Of a stretch of 64,000 nucleotides of DNA, positions 3,448 to 15,294 are shown one piece after another; within the stretch, counting starts at the first letter, position 1, and every line of letters begins with the position of its first letter. The notes below the pieces were generated by a model, which saw only the letters and a list, made by a program, of their open reading frames with translations, did no database searches and was not told where the DNA came from. A program made the position numbers and the translations under genes. Source of the DNA: an uncultured Acidobacteriota bacterium (GTDB lineage: Bacteria; Acidobacteriota; UBA6911); the NCBI GenBank assembly GCA_963747985.1, contig CAVVHG010000014.1:17149-81148 (forward strand), given 5' to 3'.

Positions 3448-4533
3448 TCAGTGCGATTTGAGTGTGGCGCACCGCGAGGCGATGACCGCCATCAAGTCGT
3501 TCCAGGACTTGGTGAATGACTTGGCGCCTTCCTCCTGGAGCCGCTCGGCAAGAGCGTCGATGTCGATTCCTGCCCTGGTAAATTCTCGGAGCACTTCCTC
3601 GCAATCGCCGCCATCCGCCGGCAGCACCTCGCCCGGTTCTCCGTGGTCAGCGACGGCCTTTAACGTGGATTCCGGCATGGTGTTGATGGTGAACGGGGCT
3701 GCCAGGGCCCGAACATAGAGAATATCCGACGCATTCGGGTCCTTGGTACCGGTGCTGGCCCAGAGGAGGCGCTGCGGCCTGGCACCGAAATTGTAGGAAC
3801 GCTGCCAGCGCCGCGAGCCGAGCAGGTCGTAATAGGCCTTGTATGTGCGCCTCGCGATAGCGATGCCAAGCCTGTTGCGCAGCGCCTCCGGCACCTTTCC
3901 GGAAACCGCCACGTCCCAGCGGCTGACGAACAACGAAGCTACTGAACGCACGTCAGGATTGAGCCCGGCTGCGATGCGCCGCTCGATCCCGCGCAGGTAT
4001 GCTTCGGATGCCGATACGTACTGCTCCCGGGAAAACAGGAGCGTCACGTTTACAGGCACGCCTGCGAACGTGGCCTCCTCGATGGCAGGCAGTCCTTCCC
4101 TGGTGCCGGGTATCTTGATGAAGAGATTGGGGCGTCCCGCCCGCGCATGAAGATACTTCACAGATGCGAGGGTGCGGCCGGTGTCGAATGCCAACAGCGG
4201 GGAGACCTCCAGGGACACCCACCCGTCCATGCCATTGGTCAGTTCATAGACCGGCCGGAACATGTCGGCAGCCCGGCTGAGGTCCTCTAATGCCAGTTCG
4301 AAGAAAAGTGCTTCGCCCGACTTGCCTGTCTTCAGCAACTCGTTGAGCGATGCATCGTAGTCGGAGCTGTTCTTGACGGCCTGATCGAAGATCGTGGGGT
4401 TGGAGGTCAGTCCTGTAACGGACAACTCGTCGATGTAGCGCCGGAGCGTGCCACTCTCCAGCAGGGCACGCGTGATGTTGTCGAGCCAGATGCTCTGGCC
4501 CAAGTCGTGAAGCTGTTGTGTGGCCTTCATCAT
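3448..4533 (-). CDS. tal: Transaldolase (type 3, actinobacterial/plant-like)
   Basis: GQSIWLDNI, GLTSNPTIF, VSLEVSP, FIKIP (Schiff-base Lys), RLLWASTGTK. Confidence 0.97.
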   Translation of the reverse strand: MMKATQQLHDLGQSIWLDNITRALLESGTLRRYIDELSVTGLTSNPTIFDQAVKNSSDYDASLNELLKTGKSGEALFFELALEDLSRAADMFRPVYELTNGMDGWVSLEVSPLLAFDTGRTLASVKYLHARAGRPNLFIKIPGTREGLPAIEEATFAGVPVNVTLLFSREQYVSASEAYLRGIERRIAAGLNPDVRSVASLFVSRWDVAVSGKVPEALRNRLGIAIARRTYKAYYDLLGSRRWQRSYNFGARPQRLLWASTGTKDPNASDILYVRALAAPFTINTMPESTLKAVADHGEPGEVLPADGGDCEEVLREFTRAGIDIDALAERLQEEGAKSFTKSWNDLMAVIASRCATLKSH

Positions 4534-4603
4534 GTCACCTCGAAGCTCACGGAGGCCGTCCGCAGCATAACCTCAGCCGGTGACACAGCCGGCCGCGGCC
4601 GCG

Positions 4604-6253
4604 TCACGGGCGGGCCTCCAATGCGTTGTTAACCATTTCCCGGGCTTCCTTGACGATAGCATCCAGATGGCTCTGGTCCTTGAGGCTCTCTGCATAAATC
4701 TTGTATATGTTCTCTGTGCCTGAAGGCCTGGCGGCGAACCAACCGTGGGCGGCGACGACTTTAAGGCCGCCGATCGGGGCGTTGTTGCCCGGGGCTCTCG
4801 TCAGCTTGGCGATGACGGGCTCGCCGGCGAGGTTCGATTCTGTTACGGCGTCAGCGGATAGCTTCTCCAGCCTCGCCTTCTGCTCGGGGGTGGCCGCCGC
4901 GTCGATCCGCGTGTAGTGCGCCGAGCCGAATTCCGCCGTGAGTTCGCGGTAGTGCTCGCCAGGATCATTGCCTGTGCACGCGGTGATCTCGGCCGCCAAC
5001 AGGTCCATGATCAGGCCGTCTTTGTCCGTAGTCCAGACCGTGCCATCGCGCCTCAGGAAGCTCGCACCCGCGCTCTCCTCACCGCCGAAGCAGTAGGACC
5101 CGTCGAACAGGCCGGGAACGAACCACTTGAAGCCCACCGGAACCTCGCACAATCGTCGACCGAACTTCTTCACCACCAGGTCGATCATGCTGCTGCTCAC
5201 GAGCGTCTTCCCGACCGCAGCCCGCTCTGGCCAGCGGGGCCGGTGCCCGAGCAGGTAGCGGATGGCGACCGCCAGGTAGTGATTGGGATTCATCAGGCCC
5301 GCGACGGGCGTGACGATGCCATGGCGATCCGAGTCCGGATCGTTGGCAAAGGCAACACGGTACCGATCCTTGAGGCCGACAAGCCGTGCCATCGCGTATG
5401 GGCTGGAGCAGTCCATGCGGATCTTACCGTCGTGATCCACCGTCATGAATGAGAATGTCGGGTCGATCACCGGGTTGACAATTGCGATGTCGAGCCCATA
5501 GACCGTGTTGATCGGCTCCCAGTAAAGGCTCGCCGCCCCACCCAGCGGGTCCACGGCCAGTCTGAGTCCGGCGGCCCGGATCGCTTCCATATCGATCACG
5601 TTCTGCAGGTCGCGAACGTAGGGAAGGATCAGGTCCTCCTCATGTGTGGTTGCCGCCTTTATGGCGGCGTCGAACGGCACGCGCTTCACGCCGCCGTTAC
5701 CGTTCCGCAGCAGTTCGTTCGCACGGCCCTGGACCCACCGCGTCACGTCGGTTTCGGCAGGGCCTCCGTTCGGCGGGTTGTACTTGAAGCCTCCGTCCTG
5801 CGGCGGATTGTGCGACGGGGTGATGACTATCCCGTCCGCCTCGTGTTCGCTGCGGCCGTGGTTGTAGGCAAGGATGGCGCGCGATATGACCGGCGTCGGC
5901 GTGAAACCATCCTTTTCCTGGATGATGGTCTCCACGCCGTTTGCAGCCAGCACCTCGAGCGCCGTACGCTGCGCAGGCTCTGAAAGCGCGTGCGTGTCTT
6001 TGCCCATGTAGAGAGGGCCGTCGGTACCCTGGTGACGCCTGTAATCGCAGATGGCCTGCGTGATGGCCAGGATGTGGGCTTCTGTGAAGGTGCCTGGCAG
6101 CGGCGAGCCCCGGTGCCCGCTGGTACCGAAGCTGACCATCTGGTTTGGGTCATCCAGGTCGGGCCGGCGTTCGAAGTATTCCCGTTCGAGCACGGCTACA
6201 TCTATGAGCATCTCCTTGGGGGCCGGTTTGCCTGCAAGGGGGGATATCGCCAT
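4604..6253 (-). CDS. pgm: Phosphoglucomutase (alpha-D-glucose-phosphate specific)
   Basis: [16 protein letters not shown] (phospho-Ser), DPDSDR metal loop, GGEESAG, RPSGTE; GAGGAG RBS before ATG 6253. Confidence 0.98.
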
Positions 6254-6290
6254 GTCAAAGCTCCTCGGAGGGACAGTGGTGACTGTCGCC

Positions 6291-8801
6291 CTACTCGACC
6301 GGGCAGGGCCTTGCGTTCCAGATGTCGGCCGCGTATTCGGCAATCGTCCGGTCGCTTGAGAATCTTCCGGAGCCGGCTACATTCAGTATGGCCTTGCGAG
6401 CCCACGCGTCTGTGTCAGCATACAGTTCGCACAAGCGCCGGTCCGTCTCAAGATAGGACCTGAGATCGGCAAGGTGCATATAGTGATCCCCGTGCGCCAG
6501 GAGCGTGTCCAGCAGCGGTACAAACACCCCCGGCTCATGGCGGCTGAAGTGGTCGGAGCGGATCAGGTCCAGCGCGGCCCGGGTCTCAGGCTCGTTCTCA
6601 TAGTGCCAATACGGGCTGTACCAGCCGCGGCTTTCGACCACCTGCTGCGCAGTCAGGCCGAACAGGAAGAAGTTTTCCTCGCCTGCTTCCTCTGCCATCT
6701 CGATGGTCGCCCCGTCGCGCGTACCGATCGTCAGCGCCCCATTCATCATGAATTTCATGTTGCTCGTGCCGCTGGCCTCGTAGCCGGCGGTCGAAATCTG
6801 GTTGGAAACATCGCTGGCCGGGATCAACCTCTCTGCGAGCGAGGCACAGTAGTCCGGCAGGAACAGGACCTTGATGCGGCCTCGAGTCGCAGGATCGCCC
6901 TCAATCGTGCCGGCCAGGTTGTTGATGAATTTGATAACGAGTTTAGCCAGACGGTAGGCCGGCGCTGCCTTGCCCGCAAAGAAGAAGGTTCGCGGCTCCA
7001 GTTCGAGCCCCGGGTTGTCGCGCAGCCTCTGGTAAAGCACGACGATGCGCAGCGCGTTGAGCAGTTGCCGCTTGTATTCGTGGATGCGCTTTACCTGACA
7101 GTCGAAGATGGTGCCCGGGTCTACTGTCTGGCCGGAAGTTGACTTGAGCCAGGCGGCAAACTTCGACTTGGCTTCTTGCTTCGCCTTGCTAAAGGCATCG
7201 CAAAAGCCTTTATCTTCGGCCAGCGGCTTCAGCCTGGCCAGCTGATCGAGGTCGCCGATCCAGGCCTGGCCGATGGCTTCGCTGATCGTGCGGGAAAGGG
7301 AGGGGTTGGCCAGCCACAGCCAGCGCCGCGGCGTCACGCCGTTCGTCTTGTTGCCGAAGCGCTCCGGGAACATCTCGGCCAGGTCGCGAACTGTCACGGT
7401 ACGCAAGAGCCCGGAGTGAATCGCGGCCACGCCGTTCGTGCTATGCGAGCCGACGATGGCCAGGTTGGCCATACGGATCTTCTGGTGAGGAGCCTCCTCA
7501 ACCAGGCTTACACACTCGATCCGCCCCGCGTCACCCGGGAACCGCTCCCGAGCCTCGTCGAGCAGCCGACGGTTGATCTCGAGGATAATCTCCAGATGAC
7601 GCGGCAACATGGTCTTGAACCAGACCAACGGCCATTTCTCCAGCGCCTCGGGCAGCAGCGTGTGGTTCGTGTAGGCGAGGGTCCTTCGGGTGAGGTCCCA
7701 GGCGTGGTCCCAGCCGAGTTGCGCCTCGTCAAGCAGGATCCGCATCAGCTCGGGCACTGCCATCGCCGGGTGCGTGTCGTTCAGCTGGATGGCGGCCTTC
7801 TCCGGAAGCGCGTTCCAGTCCTGGTTGAGACGCCGGAACCTGCGGATGAGGTCGGCCAGCGAACAGGCGACGAGGAAGTACTCCTGCAGGAAGCGGAGCC
7901 CCTGCCCCATGCTCGTGGAATCATCGGGATAGAGCACCCGCGTGAGGGATTCGGCGCCGAGGGTTTCGGCAACGGCCCCTACAAAATCGCCGCTGCTGAA
8001 TTCCTGAAAGTCAAAGGAATCGGGAGCAGCCGCCGCCCAGAGCCGGAGCGTATTGATGGTCTTTCCTCCGTAGCCTACGACCGGACGGTCGAACGGGATG
8101 CCGATCAGGCTGACCGGATGGCCCGGGACTGCCCGCAGAGCCCCTCCTCGCAATTCAAACGAGCAGTGGAGTTTCACTTCGACCTTTTCGTGCAGCCGGG
8201 CGACCTCCCACGGGTCTGGCCGGCGGAGCCAGTTGTCCGGCTGCTCCAGCTGCCAGCCGTCACTTATGGTTTGCCTGAAAATGCCGTATTCGTAACGCAG
8301 TCCGTAGCCCATGGCAGGAAGCTGCATCGTTGCCATCGAATCGAGGAAGCATGCCGCCAGTCGTCCCAGGCCGCCGTTGCCCAAACCGGCGTCGGGTTCC
8401 TGCTCGACGAGGTCGAGCCAATCGACGTTCGTGCGCTTTACTGCATCATTGATGAGCGGATCGAGCAAGAGGTTGGCGATGTTGTTTGACAGCGAACGGC
8501 CGATGAGGAACTCCATCGAGAGGTAGTAAATTCGCTTCGGATTCTCGCGTGCGTAGGTGTTTTCGGTTTGCAACCATCGCTGCGAGAGGACATCTCTCAC
8601 GGAACGGGCCACCGCTTCAAAGCGTTCCCGTTGGCCGGCATCCTTCGGGTTGAGCACGTGGTCGAAAACGAGATGCCGCTCGTAGAGCGCGTTGTCCGTA
8701 CCGGCGAACTGAACCGGTCCGCACCCGTATTGGCGCACTATTCGTGAGACAAAGTCAGGATCGGCCGAGGCAAGAGGCCCAGTAATCTTTGCGTCGCTCA
8801 T
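6291..8801 (-). CDS. glgP: Glycogen/starch/alpha-glucan phosphorylase
   Basis: [49 protein letters not shown] (PLP Lys). Confidence 0.98.
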
Positions 8802-9099: not shown

Positions 9100-12000
9100 T
9101 TACTCGCCGGGCTGGTGAGGCAGGAACACCTGGATGGATATCTCTGATTCCTGCCCGTGGACGACGCGACTGAAACCTCCGGTGCGCCTGATGATATCTT
9201 CGAGTGTGGAGGTGCTCGAAGCAGCGCGCGCACCAAGTCCCAGGGCGCTCACGGACAGCCGCACATAGGCGCCGGGAACCGCGGCCTCGCCCCATCCTTC
9301 GTCGGCGCTTTCCACCTGGATCCTTCCTGTCTCCAGGGTAACGGCCCCTCCCGCCGGAAGCGCGTCCCGCGCGATGACGACGATCGTCGTCACAGCCTGC
9401 TCGAGTTCCTGCTTGACCATTGCGACCCGCTGCGGCTCAGGATCCAGACTGAGGTGAAGATCAATATCCTCGCCGGTCAGGCGGCGCAGGATGCTTTCCT
9501 GCTCCTTCAACTGCGAGTTCAGGTCGAACACTTCAGGTTTGCGGTCCTGCTTCTGGCTGAACATCCAGAGCTGCTGCGCGAGCCTCCGCGCCCGGCTGGC
9601 GTCCTTGGCGGCGTGGGCCGCGAGGTCCCGTTCTGTAGCCCCGCGGGCCTCGGTCTGCCGGAGACGGCTGTAGAGGCCTTCGACGGATGTGAGCAGGTCG
9701 TTCAAGGCCGGAGCCACTTCTGTTGCGAGCCGCCCGACCGCCTCCATGCGCCGACTTCGACGCAGCTCCTCTTCGAGCGCATATCGTTCGGTGATGTCGC
9801 TGAAAAACCACTCCAGGCGCGGCGGCTCACCCTTGTTCCCTGCCGCCGGACCGGCATACCCCTGCAACACGACGGTGCGGCCGTCCGCACGTTTCGCGCG
9901 GCACCGCACGTCGGGGGCCCCTCCAGGTTCGCCCAGGCGCCCCCCCTTGCCGCCATGTTCATCCACAACCGGTTTCAGTATGTCCGCTGCGGCGGTGAGC
10001 ATATTCCTGGCTGATTCATACCCGAGGATCCGGGCGAAAGCGTCGTTGCACTCGAGGAGTCTTCCTTCCGGAGTCGTCAGTGCGTAGGCCACCAGGCCGC
10101 CATCAACCAGATTCCGGTGACGCATGCTGAATTTGTCCAGCTCGGCCTGGACCGACATCTTCTCGGCGCCAACCTCTTCCGTCAGGCGCTGTTGCTCCGC
10201 CTGTGCGCGAGCGAGTTGTTTCTCGAGGGTTTCGTGCTCGGCCTTCAGGGAGCGTTTGGCGGATTCAGCCTCTGCCGTCAGGCGCTGAAGGTCCGCCCGT
10301 GCGCGGGCCAGCTGTTCCTCGAGGCTCTCACGCTCGGCGCGCTGTTGGGCGCTGATCTTCTGGATCCGTTCTTCTTCCTCCTGCTGGCACCGAGCGACCG
10401 TGCTGGTGAGCGCGTGCTCGAAATCCGACGACCATTTTCTGATCAGCTCCTGGTGCCGAACGATCGTCTCCCGTTGCAGTTGGCGCAGCCGATCGACCTC
10501 GCCCTTCTGGGCCACCAGCTCTTTCAGGGAGTCCTGATACACTTCGTTTCCAGCGCGAAGCTGTTCGGACAGTTCGTCCCGAGCCGCCCGGGCTGTCTGC
10601 AGTTCTACCGTGAGCGTGGCGCGGTCCTCTTCGGCACGCCGCAGCTTCTCTTCGATCTCCAGTAAAACTGGCTGGTGCTTTTCCTTTTCCGCCTGCAGGA
10701 GGACCGCCAGTTCCTCGCATCGGGCTCGCGCCGAGCCGAGAGCTTCCTCCAACCCGGCCCTCTCGCGCTCGACTCCGCGGATCTGCTCTTCCAGCTCCTT
10801 GCGGAGTGCCTCCAGCCGCGCGTGCTCGACCTCGACCCGCTCGTTCAATTCGGCGGCGCGCTTCTCAGAGGCGGCGAGAGAGGATTCAAGAGAGGCCCGC
10901 TGCTCTTCACCTGTTCGAAGCAGGTCTTGCCGGGTGGCTTCCCACGTGTCACGTTCCGTCTGGAATCGGGCCATGGTTTCAGCCAGTCTTGCCTCGGTCG
11001 CGCGAAGCATCTGGCTGCGCGTGGATTCCAGTTCCTCAAGCCCCTGACAGCGGCTCTCCAGTTGTTGTCTCGCGGTGAGCCAGTGAGATCGTTCAGCTTC
11101 AAAACCGCCCACGACCTGGTCGAGCTGCAGCTGGATCGTGCGCGACAATTCCCTGAGCGCCTCGCGTTCGCCTTCGGCGGACCGAAGCCGGCTTTCGAGT
11201 TCGTTCCGCTCCTCCTGCCATCGGGCTTCGGCGGCTTGATGGTTCGCGGACAGCTCATCCTGCCGGGACTGTGCACTTCGGACTGTTTCTTCGAGGGCGG
11301 CGCTTTGAGCTCCGGCCGCATTGATCCGCTGCTGGAGGTCCGCTCGCGCAGCTTCCCAGGCGGTTCGTTCACCCTGCAGGGCGGCGGTTTCTTCGGCCAG
11401 TGTGGCCTCCGCCGCGCGAAGTTCCTCTGCAAGCCTGCCGGCCTGTTCTTCGGCGAGCCGCCGCTGCTCTTCGGCCGCCTGACGCTGCCGATCCAACTCC
11501 TGGCGCCCGGCTTCCCACGTGTCGCGTTCGCTCTGAAGCGCCGCGGTCCCTTCGGCGAGTTTAGCCTCCATCGCGTGAAGTTCCCCGGCAAGCCTGCTGA
11601 CTTGTTCTTCGGCAAGCCGCCGCTGCTCTTCGGCCGCCTGACGCTGCCGATCCAGATCCTGACGCCCGGCTTCCCACGTGTCGCGTTCGCTCTGAAGCGC
11701 TGCGGTCCCTTCGGCGAGTTTAGCCTCCATCGCGTGAAGTTCCCCGGCAAGCCGGTTGGCCTGTTCTTCGGCGAGCCGCCGCTGCTCTTCGGCCGCCTGA
11801 CGCTGCCGATCCAGATCCTGGCGCCCGGCTTCCCACGTGTCGCGTTCGCTCTGAAGCGCTGCGGTCCCTTCGGCGAGTTTAGCCTCCATCGCGCGAAGTT
11901 CCCCGGCAAGCCTGCCGGCCTGTTCTTCGGCGAGCCGCCGCTGCTCTTCGGCCGCCTGTCGCTGCCGATCCAATCCTGGCGCCCGGCTTCCCACGTGTCG

Positions 12001-14473
12001 CGTTCGCTCTGAAGCGCCGCGGTCCCTTCGGCGAGTTTAGCCTCCATCGCGCGAAGTTCCTCTGCAAGCCTGCCGGCCTGTTCTTCGGCGAGCCGCCGCT
12101 GCTCTTCGGCCGCCTGACGCTGCCGATCCAATCCTGGCGCCCGGCTTCCCACGTGTCGCGTTCGCTCTGAAGCGCTGCGGTCCCTTCGGCGAGTTTAGCC
12201 TCCATCGCGCGAAGTTCCCCGGCAAGCCTGCTGACTTGTTCTTCGGCGAGCCGCCGCTGCTCTTCGGCCGCCTGACGCTGCCGATCCAGATCCTGACGTT
12301 CGGCCTCGATCCGGGAGCGCTCCTCCTCTGCTTCCGCCAGCGCCCCGTTAAGGCGCAGATGCATCTCTTGCTTCTCCGCGTCGAGCGCGTTCCGCTGGGC
12401 GGCCAGCTCCGACTGCTGACGGTCAGACTCCTGGCGAACCGCCTCCCATCGCACATTCTCAGCGTTGAAGCTTTCCCTGAGCGCCCCGTAACGCTCCTCT
12501 GCCGACCGGAGAAGGCCGTTCATGAACGCCACCCGGGCTTCTGTGTTGCTGCGACTCTCCTCGAGCTCCTGACGCACCTTCTGCCACTGCGCCCGCTCGT
12601 CTTCCAGAAGCGACGTGAGTTCGGCCACGCGTTCCCGCGCCGCTGTCAGTTCGTCGCCGACGGCCCTGTGCTGTTCCTCGGCGGCTGCCAGGCTCCGCGC
12701 AAGCTCGTCGCGCGCTGCCTCCGCCTGGGTCTTCTCGGCACGCAACGCAAGCACAAATTCCTCGTGCTTTCCCTCGAGTTCGTGGAGTATCTCCTCCAGG
12801 GTATTCTTCTCGTCACGGGCAGCCTGAGCCTTTTGCTCGACCTCGGCCATGCGGTTCTGCAGCTGGCCTATCTCCGCCTGGTGGCTGTCTGCCAGCTCCG
12901 TGCATCTCGATTTGGCGGCCAGCAGCGCCTCTTCGAGCATGGTCCGGTGTTCGTCGGCGGACTGGAGCTGCTGCTCAAGGTCCTTCAGTGTCGACTCCAA
13001 GCCAGCCCGTTCGGAGGCATGGCGGGCGGCGGCCTCGTCAAGCCGTTCTTCTGCGACCTTGAGAGCATCCTCCGCCGCTTTCGCTTTTTCGGCGGCTTCG
13101 CCCTCCTTCCGCCGGGACTCCTCCAGCGATGATTCCCATCGACCCCGCTCGCCCTCCTGCAGCGCGGCGGCTTCGGCCAGCTTTACCTCCGCCGTTGCAA
13201 GCGCTTCCTCCGCAGCCCTCTTCTGCTCCGCCAGTTCCTGCTTCGCAGCCTCGATCTCCTTCAGATCCTGGCTGAGCCGATCGCAACGCTCCTGCAGCGC
13301 CAGCACCTCCTCGCCCGAAGCGACGTGCGTGACGTCCTGGATTACGGCCAGGGCAACGGTCGTGCCATTCGGGTCGCGCCTCAGGGGCACGGCCCGCATC
13401 TCCAGTTCGCGCGCAAGCCCGTCCAAGCCGGCCCACTTCACGCGGACGCTATCCCTTTCGCCGCCGCAGATCCTGGATACATACGCACGCAACTGCTCAT
13501 CCTGGGGAGGGCCGAGGAGCGTGAACAGATTCTTCCCCACTATGTCATCTACGTGCTTGGCCCCCACGAGAGACAGACCAGCCCAGTTCATGGCCAGGAA
13601 GGTCCCGTCGGAGGCGAGGAGGGCGACACAGGCGGGCACGAACTCGATAATCATACGCAGGCGTTCTTCGCTGGCTCGGAGCGCCATCTTCTCGCGCACC
13701 ATGTCCCGCCGCGCAATCAGGCCATCGAGGGACAGGAGAAATCTCCCGTAGTAATCGCCACTCTTGATGATGCAGTCCGAGGCACCCAGTCGCAGCGCCT
13801 GGATCGCCATCTCCTCCTGGCCGGCTGCAAGAAGGAGTACGACGGGATAGTCGGGCCAACGGGAGATCACGTCCTTCAGGACCTTCAGGACGTGCACGCC
13901 CAGGGCCTGATCCTCGAGGACCACCAGGTCGCAGGCGAGCGAGGTCGGATGAGTCCCTGGCGGGCGATGGACGGTCCCATCCTCGTTGACAAACGCCGCC
14001 TCCAGCTCGACAAAAGGCACCGAGCCCAGATGACGGCGGGCGTTCTCCATGTCGCCGGCGTAGAGCACCCTGATCGTTCTGGCGCGGCGCTGGGCGCGAC
14101 CGCGATAACGCTCGAGGGTCTGCTGGAGAAGCGCAGGCACGCGGCTCACGTAGTTCGGGCGTTTCACTACGTAGTCATCAGCTCCTCCAGCGATGAATTT
14201 TGCCGGAGGATCCTCGTCGTTAGGGCCGATGACCACCACGACAGCCAGGGGCAGATTCTGCTGCCGGATGCGGTTGATCAGGGCCTGGCATTCCCCGTTC
14301 GGAAGCTGGGCATCGATCAGGACAAGGTCGTAGCTTGCCGAGGGATCGAGGCGCGAGACGGCATCGCGGGCATCGGGGGAAATTTCAATCTGGATGTTGG
14401 ATGCAACCTTCTTGACCTCGTGCTCGAGAAAGTCGCCGTCTCTCAGGTCTCCGGTAACGAACAGGACTTTCAT
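9100..14473 (-). CDS. Giant REC-REC-PAS-coiled-coil-PAS-degenerate histidine kinase, frameshifted twice (about 1,791 aa if repaired)
   Basis: ORFs 11879-14473, 10845-12152 and 9100-11994 join into one protein; 1-bp deletions near 12130 and 11972; HisKA H-box reads VAPALNDLL and the ATP-lid boxes are degenerate. Confidence 0.85.
11413..12298. repeat. Intragenic tandem repeat, 159-bp (53-aa) unit, about 5.6 copies
   Basis: Anchor CCGCTGCTCT at 11461, 11620, 11779, 11938, 12096, 12254 (spacing 159,159,159,158,158). Confidence 0.97.
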
Positions 14474-14611: not shown

Positions 14612-15151
14612 TCACCAGCTGTTGACTCCAAAAATCTGGCACAGATCATGCTCGGTCTCAGTGACCACTGCCGTTACCGTCACAATGCCCGGCGCGTCAC
14701 CTTGATCTGCGGCGCCTGAAACAGGTGCTGTGGGCGGGCCCGACGGCATTTCAGGCTCCTGTCGGGGTACCGCTTCTTTAGCGGCGGAATCCGCCTTGTC
14801 CTCGGAGAACAGGGCGACTTCCTCGTCGAAGGCTACGGCGGACCTGTACCGGACCAGACCCGGCTGCAGGCACGACACGCGAGACCGCAAAACGCGGCCG
14901 TCGATCAGGAGAGTCGTGTCTGTCGTGACCAGCCGGAGGCATACCCTGGTTCCCGGAGGCAAGGGCGTTTCGCTCTCAAGCTGAGCCCCGCCCCGTGAAA
15001 CATCAATGAGGCGTACTTCGGGTCCGGCAAGGAGTTTAACACTTTTCAGGAAAGGAAGTTCAGAGGCAGGCCTGCGAGGGGATGCCCGACGCTCCCTGAC
15101 CACATTTGTCTCAGTCGCGTTTTGCTCGATCCATGCATTACTCTTCATCAT
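14612..15151 (-). CDS. PilZ-domain protein
   Basis: ERRASPRR (RxxxR) and IDVSRGGA (D/NxSxxG) c-di-GMP-binding motifs, followed by a low-complexity tail. Confidence 0.85.
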   Translation of the reverse strand: MMKSNAWIEQNATETNVVRERRASPRRPASELPFLKSVKLLAGPEVRLIDVSRGGAQLESETPLPPGTRVCLRLVTTDTTLLIDGRVLRSRVSCLQPGLVRYRSAVAFDEEVALFSEDKADSAAKEAVPRQEPEMPSGPPTAPVSGAADQGDAPGIVTVTAVVTETEHDLCQIFGVNSW

Positions 15152-15294
15152 AAGCCACACCCTTCGGGCCGCCGGCCTTCGTCAGACTTCACATCGGCAG
15201 ATATCCTGGAAAAGATGAGCGTTGCAGGTTACCCTCAGGGGTAGAATAGCCGGGGATCAGGTTGCACATCTCTGCCGCATCAAGGAGACCCGTC

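Follow-up and report, generated by a model that had tools for sequence, protein, structure and literature searches.

A 46-residue Trp-anchored repeat in a long predicted coiled-coil rod of an uncultured Acidobacteriota bacterium, with register kept and length variable

How does a coiled-coil rod of about a thousand residues grow, and what does selection hold constant while it does so? The question is raised by a giant gene (14473..9100, minus strand) in a 64,000-nucleotide stretch of DNA from an uncultured Acidobacteriota bacterium of the UBA6911 lineage (assembly GCA_963747985.1, contig CAVVHG010000014.1, positions 17,149 to 81,148 of the forward strand), referred to here as the window, to which coordinates refer unless another locus is named. 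With two single-nucleotide deletions read through, the gene encodes a product of 1,791 amino acids (aa) with no further stop, and over its whole extent (9100..14473) it specifies a receiver (REC) domain, a REC-like domain, a PAS domain, a rod of about 1,050 aa (spanning approximately aa 395-1450), a second PAS domain and a kinase-dead DHp/CA module; as assembled, it lies in three frames (open reading frames (ORFs) 11879..14473, 10845..12152 and 9100..11994). A first-pass annotation, made from the sequence without database searches, had drawn attention to the rod and proposed that its register or its length is under selection, of which the part on register was borne out by the analysis below while the part on length was not, as family members have rods of anywhere between about 400 and 1,050 aa. 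The reading that we favour, with moderate confidence, is that the protein is a dimeric spacer or scaffold, the rod linking a REC-REC-PAS head open to phosphorylation with a docking head that is kinase-dead, and that it would work together with a PilZ receptor for cyclic di-GMP (c-di-GMP).

Repeat anatomy and register of the rod

Tryptophans occur in the rod at aa 446, 630, 676, 775, 828, 881, 934, 987, 1040, 1086, 1132 and 1178, with one more at 1348. Anchors counted from 630 (630, 676, Ile722 in place of a Trp, and then 775 to 1178) are separated by intervals of 46 and 46, then six of 53, then 46, 46 and 46, and the five exact 46-residue intervals of the first-pass annotation (between WQKV, WEAV and RIEAE, the last of which corresponds to Ile722, and between WEAA, WQEE, WLTA and WEAT) were thereby reproduced. 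The significance of the 46-aa periodicity, which had been suggested as a check, was clear from BLOSUM62 autocorrelation outside the recent array, which peaked at lag 46 both in aa 395-721 (z=10.4) and in aa 1041-1450 (z=9.1), with lag 92 second and a largest z of about 4.2 among 500 shuffles. A hidden Markov model (HMM) of the unit, built from 13 units, placed 19 anchors, separated by six intervals of 46, six of 53 and three of 46, followed by 43, 46 and 46. The array is therefore longer than had been seen before, with its register extending back to W446 (through L492, L538 and A584) and running forward past the Trp anchors to L1221, H1267 and Y1313; the claim of 46-aa spacing outside the recent array stood throughout except for a single C-side interval of 43 aa.

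By stacking of the units, the old tier on the N-terminal side comprises seven 46-aa units (aa 407-728; 12290..13255, minus strand) with anchors W446, L492, L538, A584, W630, W676 and I722. It is followed by the recent tier of six 53-aa (159-nt) units (aa 729-1046; 11338..12289, minus strand), anchored from W775 to W1040, and by six further units of the old tier on the C-terminal side (aa 1047-1322; 10510..11337, minus strand), whose anchors W1086, W1132, W1178, L1221, H1267 and Y1313 are placed by the unit HMM at successive intervals of 46, 46, 46, 43, 46 and 46 counted from W1040. The last part of the rod (aa 1323-1450; 10126..10509, minus strand) is degenerate, and was delimited by a lag-32 signal and by pairwise alignment with the orthologue P0076, introduced below. 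Near this C-terminal end of the rod there is a 32-aa tandem duplication (ADLQRLTAEAESAKRSLKAEHETLEKQLARAQ; 10201-10296, minus strand) which P0076 does not have and whose length is likewise 4 mod 7.

At the DNA level the two tiers differ in age. Tandem Repeats Finder (TRF) reported the recent array at 11366..12295 with a period of 159 nt, 5.9 copies and 94% matches, and found no 138-nt period outside it; judged from its DNA, the 46-aa tier is old. Five of the six 53-aa units are 97-98% identical to one another in DNA and the sixth matches them over its first 84 nt only; the recent 53-aa expansion that had been proposed was thus upheld for five units, but for the sixth it is recent only in those 84 nt. 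A copy-by-copy comparison revealed sequence variants common to non-adjacent 53-aa copies, indicating recombination or gene conversion.

The putative module is a family-specific 46-residue unit with the consensus LEQK[IF]QEAEEQRAALEEALREAEARLAELAEEHNAERSQWEAARQE. When 53-mer and 46-mer were aligned by eye their C-terminal 29 residues were collinear (ELRAMEAKLAEGTAALQSERDTWEAGRQD versus MLRATEARLAETMARFQTERDTWEATRQD), and the extra 7 aa of the 53-mer fell in a stretch of its first half with the sequence AEEQRRL/AEEQAGRL. TRF found a 21-nt period inside every 53-aa unit (about 2.2 copies, 80% matches), where this extra heptad sits (11443..11488, minus strand, encoding AEEQRRL / AEEQAGRL, with further sites at 11606-11647, 11761-11806, 11904-11952, 12078-12123 and 12240-12281 on the same strand). 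The earlier description of the 53-aa unit as 46 residues plus one heptad was confirmed by both approaches, and the extra heptad likely arose as an internal 21-nt tandem duplication of which the probable source can still be seen.

The register within the unit was derived from the 13 window units together with 44 non-redundant units of ten family members. Hydrophobic or Ala core columns were found at positions 1, 5, 8, (12), 15, 19, 22, 26, 29, 33, 36/37, 40 (the Trp) and 43/44 of the unit, giving 13 core positions per 46 residues with alternating spacings of 4 and 3 and one unavoidable 4,4 step. The 46-mer is accordingly predicted to consist of five heptads and one hendecad, which amounts to one stutter per unit. 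Leu occupies columns 15 and 19 in 93% of units, and many of the most conserved positions are charged (among them E2, E9, R12, R25, E36, R37, E41, R44 and E46). The stutter sits in the conserved third of the unit which bears the ERxxWExxR anchor.

Fourier analysis of hydrophobicity gave the same answer over the whole rod (1,034 aa, aa 407-1440), with a peak at 3.537 residues, which is 46/13, and a power of 7.8 against a shuffle 99th percentile of 1.4, while the power at 3.500 and at 11/3 was only about 0.2 (0.17 or less at 11/3). A peak at 3.537 with almost no power at 3.500 is what one stutter in each unit produces, and it agrees with the stutter in each repeat that had been proposed beforehand from 46 being a number of heptads plus 4. 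The three sub-arrays analysed separately peaked at 3.536, 3.534 and 3.550; a seam with a period near 3.5 was thus coherent along the whole segment, as in a coiled coil, and it stays in phase at 46/13 through both tiers because 53/15 is 3.533, practically the same pitch. An undistorted helix has 3.63 residues per turn and heptads correspond to 3.50 (PMC9858780), and a period of 3.54 implies a left-handed supercoil relaxed by roughly a third.

An AlphaFold2 model of four units as a monomer (aa 1047-1230) consisted of one unbroken helix of 182 residues (H2-183) with a predicted local distance difference test (pLDDT) score of 95.5, running across the unit boundaries; being monomeric, the model demonstrates helix continuity and does not address oligomeric state. 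Since the rod leads into a PAS-DHp module, we infer that it is a parallel homodimer. Three other architectures were tried for the rod and rejected. A helical hairpin or spectrin-like bundle (2 x 23 aa) is contradicted by the autocorrelation at lag 23 (z=-2.4) and by the single continuous helix in the AlphaFold2 model, and a hendecad rod like that of Scy by the lack of power at 11/3. An ER/K single alpha-helix might be suspected from the abundance of E, R, Q and A in the rod, but is contradicted by a strong and coherent hydrophobic seam.

Unit length and copy number among relatives

A word-indexed search with the N-terminal 781 aa recovered six proteins (P0002-P0006 and P0012) of the same architecture with 28-36% identity. 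When a profile of the 46-aa unit was run exhaustively against 1.84 billion representative proteins, only 21 matched at E<=1e-3; all the full-length matches that were inspected had a REC-REC-PAS head, a rod and a kinase-like end, and the other matches were fragments of that architecture. The best match, P0076 (321 bits), is an intact orthologue of 1,547 aa with 77% identity to the window protein, from a syntenic locus with a PilZ gene upstream and phosphoglucomutase and transaldolase genes downstream. Neither a Pfam family, nor an NCBIfam family model, nor a PDB sequence relative was found for the repeat, and the literature, searched for a "46-residue repeat", yielded nothing but an unrelated designed TIM barrel; the 46-residue Trp-anchored repeat is previously undescribed.

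The number of 53-aa units differs between close relatives, with one in P0076, two in P0115 and six in the window protein. P0115, which falls into one 90% cluster with P0076, is essentially the same protein with a second 53-aa copy. As P0076 has a single 53-aa unit, the gain of the heptad predates the amplification, and the duplication of units is shown directly by close relatives carrying 1, 2 and 6 copies. Compared with P0076, the window protein carries insertions of 5x53 aa and 32 aa and lacks 49 aa (7 heptads), and this last deletion accounts for the single 43-aa anchor interval. The site at which the 49 aa (exactly seven heptads) are missing from the window gene lies near 10920 (minus strand), between aa 1182 and 1183.

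Among the relatives as a group, unit lengths of 32, 39, 46, 53, 60 and 67 aa were found, with both ends of the unit conserved and its middle varying (in units of 32 to 67 aa). P0003, P0078 and P0079 have runs of 46, whereas P0002 has anchor intervals of 39, 46, 46, 46, 42 and 42, P0080 of 46, 39 and 32, P0081 of 46 and 39 and then 46 four times, P0082 of 53, 39, 53, 46, 53 and 46, P0083 of 67, 60, 46, 60, 60, 60 and 47, and P0077 of 32 followed by runs of 46 and then 47. Over 12 proteins, 87 of the 92 single-unit intervals are 4 mod 7, a count whose members are not phylogenetically independent; when lengths other than 46 were counted once per protein, 11 of 15 were 4 mod 7 (binomial p=4e-7 versus an expected 1/7, with kinship ignored). 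The proposal that the rod lengthens by whole heptads and by duplication of units is therefore well supported, both by these intervals and by the occurrence of the 53-aa unit once, twice and six times, and the random spacing of Trp anchors in homologues, which would have spoken against it, was not seen. Each unit, whatever its length, keeps exactly one stutter beside ERxxWExxR, so the anchor module appears to be the conserved element and the heptads between anchors to be spacer.

The same comparisons bear on the suggestion that the rod might act as a molecular ruler, which was rejected when conservation of length was examined. Orthologues with 77% identity have rods 248 aa apart in length, and within a 90% cluster there is a difference of 53 aa; given the range seen across the family and the presence of 1, 2 or 6 copies of the 53-aa unit, few family features are conserved less than rod length, so that a ruler is not supported. 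In-phase insertions and deletions are an ordinary requirement of any continuous coiled coil.

These observations can be brought together as follows. The rod would be a continuous alpha-helical coiled coil of 46-residue modules, with a seam of 46/13 = 3.54 coherent throughout, in which unequal recombination between units probably gains and loses whole units while small tandem duplications and deletions in the variable middle of the unit would alter unit length. Variants that persist would mostly be those that keep the seam in phase, by whole heptads within a unit and one stutter per unit. One unit would have become 53 aa long by gain of a heptad, already in the ancestor common to the window gene and its orthologue, and would since have been amplified to six copies here, compared with one and two in the close relatives. 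Selection would act on register and on the anchor motif, leaving length free to vary in a rod that most likely serves as a spacer or scaffold separating the REC-REC-PAS head from a CckA-like PAS-DHp-CA docking head.

A scan of species genomes with the single N-terminal protein found no relative, and a scan with a four-sequence alignment found one close locus (L003) along with ordinary REC-REC-PAS kinases without a rod. L003, in a metagenome-assembled genome (MAG) of a peat Acidobacteriota, is the closest species-level genome; it ends at a contig edge and is almost identical to P0002. The 31-mers of a unique part of the window gene (12300-13300) turned up in 20 or more public metagenomes (soil, wetland, freshwater sediment, sludge and a bioreactor), in every case at low depth; either this organism or close relatives of it are widespread but rare.

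Signalling modules, the PilZ neighbour and the two deletions

The N-terminal input module (13319..14473, minus strand) is made up of a REC domain (aa 1-120), a receiver-like domain (aa approximately 133-250) and a PAS domain (aa approximately 266-385). Pfam searches with the read-through protein gave Response_reg (PF00072) at 6.8e-14 (52.4 bits compared to a cut-off of 30.2), PAS_4 at 9e-8 and PAS_8 at 2e-5, with the PAS matches at aa 270-383 and, for the second PAS domain, near aa 1455-1500. The receiver has both Asp54 and Lys104, and D54, K104 and K237 were invariant in a four-member family alignment. The REC-REC-PAS head also tops ordinary hybrid kinases without a rod (L004-L007).

The C-terminal output module (9103..10113, minus strand) was defined by phmmer, alignment and Foldseek as a PAS domain (aa approximately 1455-1560), a DHp-like hairpin and a degenerate CA domain. 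A phmmer search with the C-terminal 351 aa matched genuine HisKA/HATPase_c kinases at 4e-16 and weaker, whereas no Pfam match to HisKA or HATPase_c was obtained at E<=0.01, and the NCBIfam CckA model matched at 3.7e-29, far under its cut-off, there being no NCBIfam model for the protein's own family. The homology lies in the DHp/CA fold, while the His and the ATP-binding boxes are lost, and the kinase-like end (9103-9795, minus strand) is predicted to be inactive in catalysis. The H-box, AHDFNNLL in real kinases, is APALNDLL here with the His replaced by Pro, so that there is no phospho-acceptor His; the N-box NARDA has become IARDA (Asn to Ile), the G1 box DTGxG has become SALGLG, and in the alignment to real kinases some 20 aa that would hold the F and G2 boxes are missing. 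In P0005, P0012, P0077 and P0079 the H-box His was also seen by eye to be absent, and losses of catalytic residues were seen likewise across family members. An AlphaFold2 model of the C-terminal part was of moderate quality (pLDDT 64 overall, 70-93 in the DHp/CA region), and with it Foldseek matched LOV-HK (8a6x, 1e-13), the CckA DHp-CA (5idj, 2e-12) and the CckA CA domain (5idm, template modelling (TM) score 0.68). The output end is therefore predicted to be a kinase-dead, CckA-like PAS-DHp-CA module that has lost catalysis, and the whole protein appears to be a cytoplasmic REC-REC-PAS / PAS-pseudokinase signalling protein and not a classical cytoskeletal one.

Ratios of non-synonymous to synonymous substitution (dN/dS) between the window gene and its orthologue, measured at a dS of about 0.87, were 0.11 for the N-terminal module, 0.15 and 0.18 for the two halves of the old rod and 0.15 for the PAS-pseudokinase part. 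Purifying selection is evident on rod and dead kinase alike, and an old pseudogene is excluded by these low values.

Directly upstream of the giant gene, on the same strand, is a gene (14612..15160, minus strand) for a PilZ-domain protein (Pfam PilZ 9e-7; PF07238, 29.6 bits compared to a cut-off of 22.5), in whose translation the RxxxR (RRASPR) and DxSxxG (DVSRGG) motifs are both present and whose C-terminal tail ends in FGVNSW. A PilZ gene adjoins the giant gene in five out of five loci, namely the window, L001 (7414-7941), L002 (4587-5114), L083 (387-926) and L084 (4341-4976), and is directly upstream on the same strand in four of them; all five proteins have a tail of the form F(G/R/N)(V/G)N(S/D/N)W. 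This conserved linkage suggests that the giant protein and the PilZ protein, for which c-di-GMP binding is predicted, may be a functional pair linked to c-di-GMP. Downstream in the window (3448-8801, minus strand) are genes for glycogen phosphorylase, phosphoglucomutase and transaldolase; in L083 (5885-9510) a FitA-like/PIN toxin-antitoxin pair replaces the phosphorylase, and the same phosphoglucomutase and transaldolase follow.

The antisense strand across the rod holds ORFs at 10675-12012, 12236-13132 and 12849-13751 (plus strand), one of them of 445 aa, whose translations are repetitive and rich in Pro, Gly, Phe, Leu and Arg. Plus-strand ORFs across the array (such as 10675..12012) were considered as genes and rejected, being taken as by-products of a GC-rich, stop-poor repeat.

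The two 1-nt deletions lie at consecutive unit junctions within the array. At the first (12130..12131, minus strand) CAGGAT followed by CTGGATCGG becomes CAGGAT followed by TGGATCGG and the frame is shifted; the second (11972..11973, minus strand), located by a unit-by-unit listing and a pattern search, is identical to it at the next junction. Domain matches over the full length were obtained for some twenty other ORFs of the window; the assembly is thus not prone to indels in general, and that explanation for the deletions was set aside. Logan contigs of two other metagenomes (X1 and X2) have the array collapsed into a 189-nt unit contig with an extra base at the deletion site (GAT followed by CTG in X1, GAG followed by TTG in X2), these collapsed contigs showing presence only, with copy number and absence of the deletion allele unreadable from them; X1 is the metagenome with most words in common with the window, and its flanking contigs are 99%+ identical. 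Neither junction allele was matched when JGI metagenome contigs were scanned for the exact pattern, and 61-nt probes centred on each deletion returned no run, with the intact-junction control probe likewise returning none.

Interruptions of the rod occur elsewhere in the family as well. L001 has an in-frame TAA in its rod around 10320, after which the same frame continues into the PAS-pseudokinase, L084 has a frameshift in its rod around 7900 after which another frame continues for about 800 aa, and the tail of P0082 resembles the product of a frameshift. Either mis-assembly is frequent in rods that carry recent repeats, or inactivation or splitting at this place is common in the family. For the window deletions, the odds are about even between a mistake of assembly or polishing within the tandem array and an inactivation that is real and very recent.

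Competing explanations and known systems

The length of the rod and its regular stutters would also be compatible with a filament or cytoskeletal element, as the first-pass annotation had suggested, in which the rod would self-assemble into polymers resembling intermediate filaments, the stutter and the 46-aa periodicity of charges and Trp would set the stagger of dimers, and the end domains would regulate assembly. There are matches to the Pfam Filament family (23.7 bits, cut-off 40) and to other coiled-coil families, all sub-threshold, and the bacterial coiled-coil-rich proteins FilP and Scy do form filaments with non-heptad periodicity (PMC9858780). We nevertheless consider it unlikely, as rod length and unit number are highly variable even in close relatives, which is a poor fit to a lattice of fixed stagger, and both ends of the protein are globular signalling modules unlike the heads and tails of intermediate filaments. 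Membership of the intermediate-filament family itself was rejected, the only matches being sub-threshold coiled-coil ones, and so was an SMC-like protein, for which there was only a sub-threshold match to TIGR02168 (28.9 bits, cut-off 567) and for which Pfam found no ATPase head domains. Another reading is a periodic docking platform, with each Trp module a predicted binding site, for instance for PilZ, much as tropomyosin has actin-binding periods of roughly 40 residues, and with unit number tuning the valency. Unit copy number is polymorphic, the ends of the unit are conserved around a variable middle, many charged positions, whether in the core or on the surface, are conserved and a PilZ protein with a conserved FGVNxW tail is encoded next door in all five loci; but conserved charges are also expected from the interhelical salt bridges of a plain coiled coil, and with one PilZ gene per locus there is no sign of a matching stoichiometry, so this too is unlikely. 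Its most novel form, a length-variable multivalent platform in which each ERxxWExxR.EL module would dock PilZ or another partner and unit number, readily altered by recombination, would set how many c-di-GMP-loaded effectors are gathered by one REC/pseudokinase scaffold, we regard as quite improbable, but if true it would be a tunable second-messenger scaffold of a kind not yet described.

The two frameshifts raise the question of whether the window copy is a decaying pseudogene, its 53-aa amplification and its frameshifts both being neutral junk after inactivation. Identical deletions in adjacent units would fit one deletion copied by unit duplication, other checked genes of the window are intact so that the window is not rich in indels, and L001, L084 and P0082 are likewise interrupted inside the rod. 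Against this, dN/dS of 0.11-0.18 in every part of the gene means that any inactivation was very recent, intact relatives (P0003, P0079, P0083 and P0115) also have recent arrays, the junctions in the collapsed unit contigs of the two other metagenomes are in frame and tandem arrays are classic sites of assembly and polishing errors, and we find it quite unlikely that decay explains the array. It might alternatively be asked whether register is kept because the rod is a long-range signal wire that relays rotation or piston movement from REC/PAS to PAS-DHp; having PAS on one flank and PAS-DHp on the other is the usual setting of a signalling helix, and heptad phase is strictly kept. This is highly improbable, as mechanical coupling could hardly be faithful over a length of approximately 60-155 nm which varies between strains, there is no kinase chemistry in the output module to regulate, and conservation of phase is needed by any coiled coil.

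The reading of the protein as a dimeric spacer or scaffold with a rod of heptad-quantised modules has points weighing against it too, in addition to the kinship of the proteins counted above. The six-copy count comes from one assembly, and the window copy is interrupted by two frameshifts and may be a non-functional allele. Five of the 92 intervals (42, 42, 43, 47 and 47) break the mod-7 rule, and distant relatives use other periods (49 aa in P0005, 25/50 aa in P0006). The stutter can be placed equally well in columns 26-37 or between column 40 and column 4 of the next unit. Both the dimer and the position of the Trp in the core are inferred, and the scaffold role and the interaction with PilZ are read from architecture and gene neighbourhood.

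The rod is an unusually clean natural case of the evolution of a very long coiled coil, in which one stuttered module has been multiplied, shortened and lengthened and the seam has stayed in phase at 3.54 for more than 1,000 residues while total length drifted freely. For the coiled-coil field it offers a new class of repeat, with a Trp at a predicted core position beside a regular stutter, that is suited to modelling and crystallisation, and for bacterial signalling it offers a family that is rare and unannotated, comes from little-studied bacteria of soil and wetland, and may be a scaffold linking phosphorylation to c-di-GMP signalling. The finding has no bearing on any long-standing open question.

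Among known proteins, those that come nearest as rods are FilP and Scy of Streptomyces, of which Scy has more than 1,000 residues and whose rods depart regularly from heptads and grew by internal expansion (PMC9858780). The window protein is like them in being bacterial and cytoplasmic with a very long, non-heptad rod that has undergone internal expansion. Scy and FilP are, however, almost entirely hendecads (period 3.67) and have a DivIVA-like N-terminal motif (PMC9858780), whereas the window rod has a period of 3.54 with one hendecad to five heptads and its N-terminus is a receiver, and neither of these Scy/FilP hallmarks was found in it. Nor is there a sequence relationship, as every one of the 21 unit-profile matches that was inspected had the REC-REC-PAS/rod/kinase-like architecture.

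The output end recalls two pseudokinases, PsmA of Streptomyces, which is a hybrid histidine kinase (HK)-like pseudokinase at a coiled-coil-based polar complex (PMC12963549), and DivL. In each case, as in the window protein, an HK-like DHp/CA module without the phospho-acceptor His is part of a multi-domain signalling protein. DivL of Caulobacter is reportedly, according to a preprint, a histidine pseudokinase acting as a scaffold or modulator, and we know of no rod of about 1,000 residues and no 46-aa repeat in either DivL or PsmA. In the window protein the CA domain is also without the N-box Asn, the F box and the G2 box, and the nearest structural match is the CckA DHp-CA. Myxococcus proteins of the FrzS / AglZ type are cytoplasmic, linked to polarity and motility and built of an N-terminal receiver and a long coiled coil; the window protein shares this arrangement of a receiver and then a long coiled coil, but FrzS and AglZ are not known to end in a PAS-pseudokinase, to contain a Trp-anchored repeat of 46 aa or to have a PilZ partner. 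In sequence, the comparison with them covered the generic REC match.

Two further systems resemble the rod in how its length is organised. The cytoplasmic hairpins of chemoreceptors reportedly fall into heptad-quantised length classes, from 24H to 44H, as Alexander and Zhulin are said to have described in 2007, so that there, as here, a signalling coiled coil changes in length chiefly by whole heptads and register is kept. Chemoreceptor hairpins are antiparallel, their indels are symmetric on the two arms and they occur in few conserved length classes, in contrast to the window rod, which is a tandem array of modules of unconstrained length. In tropomyosin a period of about 40 residues matches the actin lattice and the number of periods is fixed; the window rod is like it in having a sequence period of about 40 aa laid over the heptad pattern of a long rod, presumably also two-stranded, and unlike it in that the number of units varies across the family.

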